4,231 bases of DNA from IMG/VR virus record IMGVR_UViG_2778260979_000026; one strand, 5' to 3'. Shown here one piece after another: positions 1 to 4,231 of the stretch (within the stretch, counting starts at the first letter, position 1; each line of letters opens with the position of its first letter). Under the pieces are notes generated by a model. The model saw nothing but the letters and a program-made list of their open reading frames with translations. It ran no database searches and was not told the DNA's origin. This DNA comes from a virus (Duplodnaviria > Heunggongvirae > Uroviricota > Caudoviricetes). A program made the position numbers and the translations under genes.

Positions 1-282
1 ACTGCGCATACGGGCCACCAGCAGAGGCGGCATTGCCTTTTCGATCGCCGGTAACAGAGCCTGCATTTTTTCAACAGCATCAGGGGTGTCTTTATCCAGC
101 CAACGGAAAATTTTCTGGGTATTACGAGCCAGGGCTTCCGGATGGCTGTCGTCGTACAGTTCCGGGAACGTCATCCCCAGTTCGAAATAAGTCCGGGCTA
201 TTTCAGCTGCAGGAACTTTCTCACCATCAGGATATGCCCAGGCATTCATCGCCATGCGGATGTGCTCATGTTTGATTTTCAT
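1..282 (-). CDS. ydaT: YdaT-like prophage regulatory protein, N-terminal part only; the gene runs off the left edge of the window
   Basis: Hand translation of the minus strand from ATG at 282..280 gives MKIKHEHIRMAMNAWAYPDGEKVPAAEIARTYFELGMTFPELYDDSHPEALARNTQKIFRWLDKDTPDAVEKMQALLPAIEKAMPPLLVARMRS, open to position 1. It is absent from the ORF track because there is no stop in the window. The N-terminus matches my recollection of Rac prophage YdaT (memory, not a search). A GAGG lies about 10 nt upstream of the ATG. The start overlaps the 3' end of the ydaS-like gene by 17 bp. The + strand ORF 33..275 is its antisense shadow. Confidence 0.7.
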   Translation of the reverse strand, partial: MKIKHEHIRMAMNAWAYPDGEKVPAAEIARTYFELGMTFPELYDDSHPEALARNTQKIFRWLDKDTPDAVEKMQALLPAIEKAMPPLLVARMRS

Positions 283-589
283 GAATCATTTGCCTCTTGA
301 TGCTTCGGGTATGATCGTTTTCGTCATTTGGTTGCTTCATCGACATATTCTGCGAATAACATGACGAGCGTCGTAAGTATGTCCAATCAACATCAGGACG
401 AAGTTCTTCACACAGGACACCACCTTTTGTTGCTCGTTCAATCGCAGGACATCTCTCAGCAGGCAACTGACGTACACCTTTGATCCATTGATTTACGCTT
501 GGAGGAGATACACCTAAAAGCCTAGCCATTGCTGATTGCCCACCGACAACAGCACAAGCTCGTTTGAATGAATAGTTATCTTTTTTCAT
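266..589 (-). CDS. ydaS: Cro-like helix-turn-helix DNA-binding protein (YdaS family)
   Basis: The ORF track protein contains MKKDNYSFKRACAVVGGQSAMARLLGVSPPSVNQWIKGVRQLPAERCPAIERATKGGVLCEELRPDVDW, which matches Rac YdaS closely from memory. I chose the ATG at 589..587, which has a GGAG about 7 nt upstream on the minus strand, over the track start at 610. It is divergent from racR across an operator region. Confidence 0.85.
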   Translation of the reverse strand: MKKDNYSFKRACAVVGGQSAMARLLGVSPPSVNQWIKGVRQLPAERCPAIERATKGGVLCEELRPDVDWTYLRRSSCYSQNMSMKQPNDENDHTRSIKRQMIHENQT

Positions 590-713: not shown

Positions 714-1190
714 ATGCTTAGTGGTAAAGACTTAGGCCGAGCGATAGAGCAGGCCATTAACAAAAAAATTGCATCAGGAGCCGTCAAATCAAAGGCGGAA
801 ATCGCACGTCATTTCAAAGTCCAACCACCATCAATCCATGACTGGATTAAGAAAGGTTCGATAAGTAAAGACAAACTTCCAGAACTATGGCGTTTCTTTT
901 CTGATGTGGTTGGTCCAGAGCATTGGGGGCTTAACGAATACCCCATACCAACCCCATCCACTTCAGATACAAAAAGTGAACTTTTAGACATAAACAGCCT
1001 TTATCAAGCCGCCTCTGATGAAAAAAGAGCAATTGTGGCTTTCCTCTTATCTGGAAATGCTACGGAGCCTAGTTGGGTTGATCATGACGTTCGTGCCTAC
1101 ATTGCCGCAATGGAAATGAAGGTAGCTAACTATCTGAAAAATCAAGAATCAAAACGGAAAAGCCAGAACATCACCAAGACAGGAACTTAA
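714..1190 (+). CDS. racR: Prophage repressor RacR (CI functional analogue)
   Basis: The 158-aa product MLSGKDLGRAIEQAINKKIASGAVKSKAEIARHFKVQPPSIHDWIKKGSISKDKLPELWRFFSDVVGPEHWGLNEYPIPTPSTSDTKSELLDINSLYQAAS... is near-identical to E. coli Rac RacR as I recall it, at the same length. It is divergent from the cro-like gene and flanked on both sides by operator palindromes. Confidence 0.9.
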   Translation: MLSGKDLGRAIEQAINKKIASGAVKSKAEIARHFKVQPPSIHDWIKKGSISKDKLPELWRFFSDVVGPEHWGLNEYPIPTPSTSDTKSELLDINSLYQAASDEKRAIVAFLLSGNATEPSWVDHDVRAYIAAMEMKVANYLKNQESKRKSQNITKTGT

Positions 1191-1327: not shown

Positions 1328-1427
1328 TTTCCCATACCAACCCATCCCGTCCCACACAATACAGGGCAATACCTAGAGTTACCCGGCAGTGGTCAGGGAT
1401 TAAGTAGCCAGCCCGAGGCGTAAGAAC

Positions 1428-1658
1428 ATGACGGCAGGGTTCAACTTTAACTATGCAGCAGGTTTTTGTTCCGCTACCCCGGCGTTAAGGGGATATGAGG
1501 TCAGCATGGATACTCTTGATCTTGGCAACAACGAATCTCTGGTGTGCGGCGTGTTTCCCAACCAGGACGGCACGTTCACCGCGATGACGTATACCAAAAG
1601 CAAAACGTTTAAAACCGAATCTGGCGCGCGTCGCTGGTTAGCAAGAAACTCTGACTAA
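1428..1658 (+). CDS. Small hypothetical prophage protein, first ORF downstream of the pL-like promoter
   Basis: A 76-aa ORF with GAGG about 10 nt upstream of the ATG at 1428. An in-frame ATG at 1506 has a better-spaced GAGGT 5 nt upstream and would give a 50-aa product. Its position corresponds to the ydaG/ydaF slot of Rac. I do not recognise the sequence with confidence. Confidence 0.5.
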   Translation: MTAGFNFNYAAGFCSATPALRGYEVSMDTLDLGNNESLVCGVFPNQDGTFTAMTYTKSKTFKTESGARRWLARNSD

Positions 1659-1740
1659 TGAAATCTGGTAATTAAGGAATCCTCCACGGGGGGAGAGTGG
1701 TGCACACGCGCCGGACACAAGCAAGCATCCGGCATGCTCT

Positions 1741-1760
1741 TTAACAATCTGGATATCCAT
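1741..1760. repeat. TTAACAA-TCT-GGATATCC element 13 bp downstream of the stop of the antisense gene
   Basis: Contains the palindrome GGATATCC (1751..1758). ATCTGGATATCC (1746..1757, extendable to 13 bp) is the exact reverse complement of GGATATCCAGAT at 2313..2324. TTAACAA is also shared with 2324..2330. Confidence 0.5.
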
Positions 1761-1772
1761 AACAGTAAAAAT

Positions 1773-2264
1773 CTACAGATTGCCGTTCAGTTTTCTGGCC
1801 AACTCTTCAATAGATGGAGGTGATACGTAATCCGGATTTTTATTCATAAGAAACTGATTTTCACAGTACAGGCACCTGCTTTTATGAAAAAATTCATATT
1901 CTCTAACCGGGAATGGCTGAAGTATCGATACTATCTTTTGTCCAAAACATTTTGGACAAAGATGCATGATTATGCTGCCGCCGTTCACGGTTACCTCCTT
2001 CGAGTACACAAAAGTTCCCGACTCAAGTTGGCTAAGGATATAACCTTCCGTCTGAGCCTCAAAGTTTTCAAATTCTGCAATTTTAGCTTTGAGAGAAGCA
2101 TTTATTTCTTGATAAGTGCCCACCAGCTCAACGAGAGACACGCATTCGCGCTGAATAGATGCAAGCTTTGAGTTCAGTTCACCAATAGCCGCATTTACTT
2201 CAGCTTGAGTTTTTGCCTCGTTCATTAGTTTTGCAATCTGGGCGGTTTCACGAATAGCCGTCAT
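1773..2264 (-). CDS. Hypothetical protein with a coiled-coil-like N-terminus and a C-terminal CxxC-x22-CxxC zinc ribbon; candidate moron or exclusion gene
   Basis: Minus strand ORF ending at TAG 1775..1773. Start chosen at ATG 2264..2262, giving MTAIRETAQIAKLMNEAKTQAEVNAAIGELNSKLASIQRECVSLVELVGTYQEINASLKAKIAEFENFEAQTEGYILSQLESGTFVYSKEVTVNGGSIIMHLCPKCFGQKIVSILQPFPVREYEFFHKSRCLYCENQFLMNKNPDYVSPPSIEELARKLNGNL. The track's longer version starts at a TTG at 2441 and translates the upstream repeats into Pro/Arg-rich sequence, which looks non-coding. There is no obvious Shine-Dalgarno, so the exact start is uncertain (the next in-frame ATG is at 2225). The gene is oriented against its neighbours and is more AT-rich than they are. 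Confidence 0.6.
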   Translation of the reverse strand: MTAIRETAQIAKLMNEAKTQAEVNAAIGELNSKLASIQRECVSLVELVGTYQEINASLKAKIAEFENFEAQTEGYILSQLESGTFVYSKEVTVNGGSIIMHLCPKCFGQKIVSILQPFPVREYEFFHKSRCLYCENQFLMNKNPDYVSPPSIEELARKLNGNL

Positions 2265-2302
2265 TGCTGCCGTTAATTCAGCGATCACATTCAATACTCT
2301 TA

Positions 2303-2348
2303 TTGTTGTTGGGGATATCCAGATTAACAAGATCCTTGTTGTTGGGGA
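2303..2348. repeat. Direct repeat TTGTTGTTGGGGA x2 (2303..2315 and 2336..2348) flanking GGATATCC-AGA-TTAACAA
   Basis: An exact 13-bp direct repeat with 33-bp periodicity. The palindrome GGATATCC (2313..2320) and TTAACAA (2324..2330) sit between and partly within the copies. The module lies between the start of the antisense gene and the remnant exonuclease gene. Confidence 0.6.
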
Positions 2349-2372
2349 ATAACGGGGACCACCTCGCCTGAC

Positions 2373-2810
2373 GTGGTAAAAAGCAGGCACACAACACGAA
2401 AGCACACGGCGAGGGACACCATTAAATGGTGGCTTAAGCAATCACGCGAAGCGCAATCTGCCATTATGACCGATGAAATCCCGTTAGATGATGCACTGTT
2501 ACAATTGCGGGAATTTATCGACGAAAACTCCGGTGAATTTTTTGTTCAGGTCTGGGGAAATGGAGCCAACTTCGACAACACGATTTTGCGCCGTTCATAC
2601 GAACGGCAGGGGATCCCCTGCCCGTGGCGTTACTACAACGATCGCGATGTACGCACAATCGTTGAGCTGGGGAAAGCCATAGACTTCGATGCCAGAACGG
2701 CTATTCCATTCGAAGGTGAGCGCCATAATGCACTTGATGACGCCCGTTACCAGGCAAAATACGTTTCAGTTATCTGGCAAAAACTGATCCCGAATCAGGC
2801 TGATTTTTAA
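2373..2810 (+). CDS. DEDDh-type 3'-5' exonuclease family protein (Rv2179c-like), apparently 5'-truncated
   Basis: The product carries an Exo II-like motif (WGNGANFDNTILRRSYER) and an Exo III-like Hx4D motif (HNALDDARYQAKY) but no N-terminal hydrophobic-strand/DxE Exo I motif. The first ~13 residues (MVKSRHTTRKHTA, from a GTG start) do not resemble the family. An in-frame ATG is at 2466. Neither start has a convincing Shine-Dalgarno. Confidence 0.65.
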   Translation: MVKSRHTTRKHTARDTIKWWLKQSREAQSAIMTDEIPLDDALLQLREFIDENSGEFFVQVWGNGANFDNTILRRSYERQGIPCPWRYYNDRDVRTIVELGKAIDFDARTAIPFEGERHNALDDARYQAKYVSVIWQKLIPNQADF

Positions 2811-2821
2811 TGTTCAACCCC

Positions 2822-2854
2822 GGTCGTTGCCCACCAGCTATAGTGGCGGCGACC
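2822..2854 (+). other. GC-rich stem-loop in the exonuclease-xis intergenic region
   Basis: GGTCGTTGCC(C)AC pairs with GTGGCGGCGACC with G-U wobbles and one bulge, about 12 bp, around the loop CAGCTATA. No U-tract follows on either strand, so it is not a canonical intrinsic terminator. Confidence 0.3.
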
Positions 2855-2874
2855 ATGATTAGCGAACGACGCTC

Positions 2875-3123
2875 ATGGCAAGACTTATTCTGCTCACTGA
2901 GTGGGCAAAAGAGGAATTCAGTGAACCGGTCCCAACTCCGAGTACGTTAAGTAAATACGCTAAAGCCGGAATGATATTTCCTCTCCCCAAAAAAGTTGGA
3001 AGACGCTGGCGAGTGGATCCGCAAGCTCGCTTTGTCGGAATGGTAAACAAGCCGGAGGTGATCGCCACAGATCACCCTGCTTTGAAGAGGATACTGGAAG
3101 ATGGCGCGCCCGCGAAAATATAA
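2875..3123 (+). CDS. xis: Excisionase (Xis, DNA-binding)
   Basis: An 82-aa basic protein, MARLILLTEWAKEEF...GMIFPLPKKVGRRWRVDPQARFVG, typical of excisionases. It lies immediately upstream of int and overlaps it by 23 bp. Confidence 0.8.
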   Translation: MARLILLTEWAKEEFSEPVPTPSTLSKYAKAGMIFPLPKKVGRRWRVDPQARFVGMVNKPEVIATDHPALKRILEDGAPAKI

Positions 3124-4231
3124 AACCGATGTTCCGGGATTATCTCCGTATTTTGACAAAAGAAATAACAAAGTTTACTGGCGTTACAGGCATCCCATAA
3201 CAGGCAAAAATCACGGTCTCGGCAGTATTGACCAGAAACTGGCAGAAACTATTGCAGCAGAAGCGAACAGCCGTCTTGCCCGGCAGCAAATGGAACAAAT
3301 GCTCAGTCTGCAGGAGAAAATTATTAGTGATACCGGCGGTTCATCAACCGTTACCATTTTTCTGAATAATTACAGAAAAATTCAACAGGAAAGATATGAA
3401 AACGGCGAGATCAAACTCAACACGCTGAAACAGAAAGCGGCCCCTCTCAGGGTATTTGATGAACGTTTTGGCACCAGACCGTTAGATGCCATAACCGTAA
3501 AAGATGTGGTATCAGTACTGGAAGAGTACAAGGCCAGAGGACATAACAGAATGGGACAAATTTTCAGGAAAGTACTGATCGATGTTTTCCGGGAAGCTCA
3601 GCAAACGGGCGATGTCCCGCCAGGCTTTAACCCTGCAGAATCGGCAAAAAAACCGCAGGTGCGGATATCAAGACAGCGACTGACTTTTGATGAGTGGATG
3701 ATGATTTATAACGCAGCGGAAAAGGATGGTTACTTTTTACAGCGCGGTATGCTGCTGGCACTGATGACAGGCCAGCGCCTTTCAGATATTTGCAAAATGC
3801 AATTTTCGGATATCCGGGATGGTTATCTTCATGTCGAACAGCAAAAAACAGGAACCCGGATTGCCATCCCTCTGGCTCTGCGTTGCGATAAATTAAATCT
3901 CACCCTGGATGATGTGGTGTCATCCTGCCGCGATTGCGTTCTTAGTCCGTGGCTATTGCACCACCATCACGCGAAAGGGACAGCTAAGCGCGGCGGGATG
4001 GTTAAGCCAGCAACATTAACCGTTGCATTTAAAAAAGCCCGGGATTCTGTGGATTACAACTGGCGTGCTAATGGCACCCCTCCCTCTTTCCATGAGCAGA
4101 GATCTTTATCAGAGCGATTGTTCAGAGAGCAGGGGGTTGATACCAAAATTTTGCTAGGCCATTCGAATCAAAAAATGACCGATATTTACAACGACGCACG
4201 CGGTAAGGAATGGAAAAAACTGGTCATTTGA
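3101..4231 (+). CDS. int: Tyrosine site-specific integrase (lambda Int family)
   Basis: A 376-aa product with an arm-binding-type N-terminus (MARPRKYKTDVPGLSPYF...). Catalytic signature elements are visible: R in GQRLSDI, H-x-x-R in HEQRSLSERL, and the H...Y pair in LLGHSNQKMTDIYNDARGKEW. The stop TGA is the last codon of the window. Confidence 0.9.
   Translation: MARPRKYKTDVPGLSPYFDKRNNKVYWRYRHPITGKNHGLGSIDQKLAETIAAEANSRLARQQMEQMLSLQEKIISDTGGSSTVTIFLNNYRKIQQERYENGEIKLNTLKQKAAPLRVFDERFGTRPLDAITVKDVVSVLEEYKARGHNRMGQIFRKVLIDVFREAQQTGDVPPGFNPAESAKKPQVRISRQRLTFDEWMMIYNAAEKDGYFLQRGMLLALMTGQRLSDICKMQFSDIRDGYLHVEQQKTGTRIAIPLALRCDKLNLTLDDVVSSCRDCVLSPWLLHHHHAKGTAKRGGMVKPATLTVAFKKARDSVDYNWRANGTPPSFHEQRSLSERLFREQGVDTKILLGHSNQKMTDIYNDARGKEWKKLVI

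Follow-up and report, generated by a model that had tools for sequence, protein, structure and literature searches.

The window analyzed here, the whole stretch of 4,231 nucleotides, comes from a lambdoid prophage, of which it forms the left arm. Its genes, and the smaller features referred to below, are the following.

End portion of a ydaT-like gene, minus strand (only this portion lies in the window)
266-589, minus strand: ydaS/Cro-like HTH gene
714-1190, plus strand: racR
1506-1658, plus strand: DUF1391 gene
1773-2288, minus strand: antisense gene coding for 171 aa (WP_000559928.1, phrog_1244; from PGAP annotation and PHROG match)
2289-2412: retained leader, flanked by the antisense gene and, before their loss, by dicF and dicB
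2373-2810, plus strand: exonuclease remnant ORF, 145 aa, GTG start
2373-2412, plus strand: 5' part of this ORF, derived from the leader and not from an exonuclease (13 codons from the GTG and base 1 of codon 14)
2412-2413: deletion junction, with the operon leader as left flank and the exonuclease interior as right flank
2413-2810, plus strand: true exonuclease remnant, beginning at base 2 of parent codon 692 and ending with codon 823 and the stop
2568-2579, plus strand: Exo II motif NFDN (ORF residues 66-69), aligned with the FD of PDB 8KEL
2724-2741, plus strand: Exo III motif HNALDD (H-x4-D; ORF residues 118-123, parent residues 796-801), inside the PF16473 match
2875-3123, plus strand: excisionase gene (xis), the next gene downstream of the remnant (Pfam PF07825; excisionase annotation in loci L003 and L004)
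3101-4231, plus strand: lambda-type integrase gene (int) of the ompW-site type (Pfam PF09003 and PF00589; adjoins ompW in loci L010 to L015)

An exact boxA-like sequence, GCTCTTTAACAA, which reads TGCTCTTTAACAA when the preceding T is included and for which 0.05 chance occurrences are expected per window, lies at 1736-1747 on the plus strand, in the interval that separates the DUF1391 gene from the antisense gene's 3' end. It is equally placed in loci L005, L007, and L008 and is the exact point at which the homology shared with antisense cassettes in other prophages starts; it may be a nutL-type antitermination site marking the left edge of a variable gene slot. A scan of positions 1600 to 2900 for promoter and terminator consensus sequences returned no sites.

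The ORF gave a strong Pfam profile match to the Rv2179c-like DEDDh 3'-5' exonucleases (PF16473; 159.1 bits, E value of 1.2e-46, curated cut-off of 27), although it spans only profile positions 47 to 177 of 177. The remnant shares Exo II and Exo III with this family, which includes the 227-aa "Exodeoxyribonuclease" of PDB 8KEL, but lacks Exo I and the first 46 profile positions. A previous, sequence-only reading of this DNA had described a gene that keeps Exo II and Exo III while its 5' end and Exo I are lost, and the searches bear this out: both motifs are present, the Exo II catalytic Asp being ORF residue 68 (residue 746 of the parent), D-x-E occurs nowhere in the entire 145-aa ORF, and the profile match begins at position 47. 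Neither a hidden DxE nor family members that naturally begin at this point could be found when we looked for them. The same reading was right that any product would lack one catalytic carboxylate pair, since two acidic residues are missing from the DEDDh catalytic set of five (four of them acidic), and that the first ~13 codons are unrelated, codon 14 being the first homologous one.

The part that truly derives from the exonuclease is thus shorter than the ORF: 398 bp, or 132 of the 823 codons of the parent, coding for the C-terminal three quarters of the DEDDh domain. At the protein level the ORF matches PHROG family phrog_2082 at positions 685 to 823 of 823 and does not have the full-length architecture of that family (N-terminal region, RecE-like middle, and C-terminal DEDDh domain). 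The counterpart of 2373-2412 is unannotated intergenic DNA in loci L008, L009, and L006, and, by chance, the frame extends upstream without a stop as far as a TAA at 2325; at codon 14, AGG gives the same Arg as the parental CGG by coincidence. There are no substitutions with respect to intact gene copies (100% identity over the last 131 codons) and no inactivating mutation other than the truncation itself. The absence of substitutions therefore indicates either a recent event or homogenization by recombination with paralogues in the same genome. PADLOC returned just a subthreshold "Exonuclease effector" match for the remnant (E value of 0.003).

Intact homologues in other E. coli genomes are 2,472-bp genes located between the DUF1482 gene and xis that code for an 823-aa "exonuclease" (WP_000048551.1 type, phrog_2082), found in PPompW and Qin-type prophages. 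The last 131 codons are those of the remnant and the same xis/int lies downstream, but the intact protein has residues 1 to 691 (the N-terminal region, the RecE-like CxxC...CxxC middle, and the start of the DEDDh domain), which the window lacks. The DEDDh domain of the parent is C-terminal (residues 642-813 match PF16473 positions 2-177) and its Exo I motif, IDLET at residues 645-649, lies upstream of the breakpoint at residue 692 and aligns with the IDFET of the solved phage-type exodeoxyribonuclease 8KEL. The sequence-only reading had put full-length family members at about 170-180 aa with DxE near residue 10. The parent is instead 823 aa long with the motif near residue 645, and what was lost is not the ~40 codons implied by a parent of ~175 aa, but 691 codons and three upstream genetic elements, ~2.9 kb in all.

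The middle region of the parent (residues 262-625) is homologous to residues 278-591 of RecE, the exonuclease VIII of the K-12 Rac prophage (E value of 3e-61), with near identity around the CxxC, and the two genes have equivalent places in the early-left operon. The annotated activity of RecE is that of a 5'->3' double-stranded DNA exonuclease, and its C-terminal part did not align to the parent, which ends in the DEDDh domain. By these alignments, the 823-aa protein looks like a domain-swapped RecE, in which a DEDDh 3'-5' domain takes the place of the C-terminal nuclease part of RecE. In L003 the gene is found at 2640-5111, outside the window, with this same combination of RecE-like CxxC...CxxC middle and C-terminal DEDDh domain. 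The homology of the middle region explains the older label "exonuclease VIII" or "exodeoxyribonuclease VIII", a label that misleads on polarity and fold because the catalytic domain is a DEDDh domain and not that of RecE. It is equally misleading for the remnant, which carries it in the Sakai annotation and consists of DEDDh domain, with no part of the RecE-like region surviving in the window.

To locate the junction, the window and its two parental flanks in loci L008 (E. coli STEC2017-197), L009 (strain RM9872), L006, and L003 were compared three ways, and six sequences were aligned. DNA identity to intact genes is 99.9-100% from 2413 to the end of the window and stops abruptly at 2412. Window positions 1336-2412 align to 6677-7751 of L008, and positions 2413-4231 align to 10700-12518, with 2,948 bp missing from the window (2,922 bp in the comparison with L009). 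As aligned, the window differs from L008 by one clean deletion. Microhomology at the junction amounts to 0 nt with a parent of the L008/F11 type and to 2 nt (GG) with a parent carrying the K-12-type allele. The sequence-only reading had placed the breakpoint around 2400-2410, next to the repeat module; its location stands, 3 to 12 nt off the exact 2412|2413, while its setting does not, as it falls in the interior of the leader and does not coincide with the boundary of the antisense cassette.

The segment missing with respect to L008 comprises the remainder of the leader (in which lies a divergent DicF-like sequence with its terminator), dicB, the DUF1482 gene (ydfD in K-12, annotated as a lysis protein), and codons 1 to 691 of the exonuclease gene, 84% of which was removed. 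The DicF-like sequence of L008 scores below the Rfam gathering threshold; Rfam DicF sequences that do reach it are found at 6297-6348 of L009 and 4240-4291 of L006, ~185 nt to the right of the left breakpoint. Since the undeleted comparators are only ~94% identical to the window, we infer from them the exact content lost by the immediate ancestor (for example, a canonical DicF). The gene order of the undeleted operon is that of the K-12 Qin prophage, and the window keeps the order remnant, xis, int, with dicB and ydfD absent, as a deletion predicts. A displaced N-terminal fragment, the check proposed along with the sequence-only reading, was searched for by tblastn of parent residues 1-691 against the window, and none was detected (best E value of 0.32). 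The comparisons with both flanks show, at the level of aligned DNA, the joining of 2412 to 2413 with loss of the genes in between.

The leader to the left of the junction is conserved in other prophages. Its last 55 nt (2358-2412) are ~96% identical to the leaders of Qin-type operons upstream of dicF in many E. coli genomes, and in the six-way alignment at least the last 20 nt before the junction fall within a block, AACRCGAAAGCGCAYGGCGA..., common to Qin-type leaders including that of K-12; all five relatives run colinearly past the junction. A 32-nt part of the 2358-2412 element is also found upstream of ydfC in L003 (698-730). Farther to the left, positions 2305-2396 are conserved at 88-93% beside two different antisense genes, those of strains C51 and YF-1.

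Immediately upstream of the antisense gene start, the 13-nt sequence TTGTTGTTGGGGA occurs twice as a direct repeat (2303-2315 and 2336-2348, 33 nt apart), and the leader also has the element ACCAC-N10-GTGGT at 2359-2378. The repeat is kept beside both antisense genes mentioned (C51 and YF-1) and could be an operator or promoter element of the antisense slot; no sigma-70 consensus site was found at the two copies. An Rfam scan of the whole window at an E value of up to 1 detected no RNA family, and therefore nothing known accounts for the leader repeats. The predicted RNA fold of 2340-2420 has a z-score of 0.08, and thus there is no evidence of special structure around the GTG start.

Positions 1 to 2819 of the window are those of prophage Sp6 of E. 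coli O157:H7 Sakai, with a single mismatch at 2794, and the remnant has its counterpart there in ECs_1503, of identical sequence and with the same junction. The downstream xis/int module is different, adjoining potC in Sp6 and being of the ompW-site type in the window. A query spanning the junction was covered at 80% or more in 267 complete E. coli genomes, with a median of 2 matching places per genome and up to 9. The whole window is contained in none of the complete RefSeq E. coli genomes, because Sp6 has the different xis/int module next to potC, but its architecture is present in at least 24 draft contigs. Six contigs of 29 to 100 kb, each from a different assembly, are 99.85-99.98% identical to the window and adjoin ompW, four of them matching over its full length. 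In one of these (L010), the 5.4 kb to the left are 99.96% identical to Sp6 and are followed by PPompW-type xis, int, and ompW. An assembly chimera was considered as the origin of the window and was rejected, given the agreement of these contigs from different assemblies.

The identity to Sp6 ends at 2819 (the switch lies within 2811-2830), just past the stop codon of the exonuclease. To the right of this point, a potC-site module follows in Sp6, and in the window the xis/int is that of PPompW-type phages, of the ompW-site type. One deleted early region combined with two integration modules suggests module exchange, and the position of the switch suggests that it may have taken place by recombination in or beside the conserved 3' end of the exonuclease gene.

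Considering all these comparisons, we are highly confident that the ORF is a nonfunctional relic of an 823-codon exonuclease gene, left behind by a single deletion of ~2.9 kb. The ancestor would have been a lambdoid prophage with Rac-type immunity genes (racR, ydaS, and ydaT) and a Qin-type early-left operon, arranged in the order repressor, DUF1391 gene, antisense 171-aa gene, leader, DicF-like RNA, dicB, DUF1482/ydfD, 823-aa RecE-like exonuclease, xis, and int. A single illegitimate deletion of ~2.9 kb joined nucleotide 2412 of the leader to the second base of exonuclease codon 692 (2413), taking with it the DicF-like RNA, dicB, ydfD, and 84% of the exonuclease gene; the surviving 398 bp encode a DEDDh domain devoid of its first 46 profile positions, including the Asp and the Glu of Exo I. 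DicB, DicF-type RNAs, and YdfD harm the host when expressed, as is well established for these functions and reflected in the K-12 annotation. The deletion might have been kept because it did away with these functions toxic to the host, namely the two division inhibitors (DicB and DicF) and YdfD, a lysis protein. Because the lost segment carries them, the truncation of the exonuclease was probably collateral, and it was probably the loss of dicB, dicF, and ydfD that made the deletion tolerable or even advantageous.

The sequence-only reading had put forward a different cause, that the exonuclease gene lost its start through the acquisition of the antisense gene. In its explicit form, the antisense cassette would have crossed over within the exonuclease gene, so that the gain of one gene and the loss of the 5' end of the other were a single event. 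Indeed, just 124 nt separate the breakpoint from the antisense gene start, and it lies within ~20-55 nt of the onset of homology to prophages with other cassettes. However, the same 171-aa antisense gene (in a region 96.9% identical) is found in L008 upstream of intact dicB, DUF1482 gene, 823-aa exonuclease, xis, and int, next to ompW, and it thus coexists with the very block that its arrival should have removed. The antisense gene and its upstream region (window 1736-2396) are also present, at 93.5% identity, in strain C51, in a different prophage of the yfdP/Q/R type, where the repressor gene and intact early genes flank the cassette; in strain YF-1, positions 2305-2396 of this upstream region are found by themselves, next to another antisense gene. 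The leader block of Qin-type operons, including that of K-12, which has no antisense gene at that place, takes in the 20-55 nt that precede the junction, and the five relatives are all colinear across the junction. Since the breakpoint lies inside this conserved leader and not at a cassette edge, it is to be read as an internal deletion of the operon and not as the scar of a cassette insertion. We regard the crossover as very unlikely; by these comparisons, the antisense gene did not cause the truncation, and the simplest history would be that a prophage with this gene already in place underwent an internal deletion. Even smaller, to the point of being negligible, is the probability that nothing was truncated and that the ORF is a naturally short family member or an artifact of assembly or annotation. 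Stand-alone Rv2179c-like proteins do exist (Rv2179c itself has ~168 aa), and no complete RefSeq E. coli genome has the whole window, but the profile match starts at position 47, DNA identity to the 823-codon genes halts abruptly at 2413, and the 267 complete genomes share the junction with many draft assemblies produced independently. As a junction, 2412|2413 is real and stable.

A further possibility concerns what the remnant does at present. It might be translated, from the GTG at 2373 or from the ATG at 2466 (the start used in the Sakai annotation), into a noncatalytic fragment with a function of its own, for example one that interferes with the intact paralogous exonucleases of coresident prophages. 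The frame is open and identical in sequence to the intact copies, gene callers predict the 145-aa ORF, and, from its operon position upstream of xis/int, transcription is expected upon induction. On the other hand, no Shine-Dalgarno motif precedes either start, a recent neutral relic is equally expected to show zero divergence, and the first quarter of the domain, with its Exo I segment, has been lost. In the DEDD fold this first quarter includes core beta-strands, which makes a stable fold of the fragment doubtful. We therefore give this reading little credence. Its more specific version, a fragment of 114-145 aa acting as an induced, dead decoy that modulates the paralogous exonucleases, is just as improbable, as is a role of the 398 bp as a selected homology patch for the exchange of integration modules, although the latter is fitted by the switch of xis/int type right after the stop codon, at ~2819. 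A relic without function remains the preferred reading. With Exo I missing, the remnant is predicted to have no 3'-5' exonuclease activity, and it probably yields no stable protein.

That the gene is truncated was already known, and in this respect it is an ordinary pseudogene. PGAP annotates window positions 2409-2810 in O157 genomes as "3'-5' exonuclease; incomplete; missing N-terminus", and in a study of the Sakai prophages, the general recombination function of Sp6 was scored as "D" (disrupted) (Asadulghani et al. 2009, PMC2669165, Table 1), the text stating that among the Sakai prophages the ExoVIII-type system is intact in Sp10 only. Our search of the literature on ECs1503, ECs1504, and ydfE found nothing relevant. 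The last of these, a pseudogene of the K-12 Qin prophage, is another fragment of the same gene in a cryptic prophage, 93% identical over parent residues 1-256. The two fragments are complementary: in ydfE, IS2 made the cut and the 5' end is left; in the window, a deletion made it and the 3' end is left. What the present analysis adds is the exact junction, the size and content of the deletion, the architecture of the parent, and the rejection of the antisense-gene model.

The biological weight of one more decayed gene in a defective prophage is minor. It is nevertheless a clear case of prophage domestication, with division-inhibitor and lysis genes removed, and the junction 2412|2413 provides a precise lineage marker for Sp6-type prophages. 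It also calls for caution with annotations, as the remnant is still called as a gene of 145 or 114 aa under the name "exonuclease" or "exodeoxyribonuclease VIII" and has a PHROG family of its own, phrog_8783 (114 aa), which matches window positions 2466-2810 with the exact length and sequence of the version starting at ATG 2466. Phage protein databases have therefore passed on truncated relics as a distinct family.

PADLOC found no match for the antisense protein or for the intact exonuclease. The antisense protein is helical and coiled-coil-like in its N-terminal half and has a cysteine pair of the form CPKC...CLYC in its C-terminal part, and its gene fills the slot of sieB in the K-12 Rac prophage, just after the DUF1391 gene and opposing the early-left operon. 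This 171-aa gene is a candidate superinfection-exclusion or defense gene, carried as an extra cassette.
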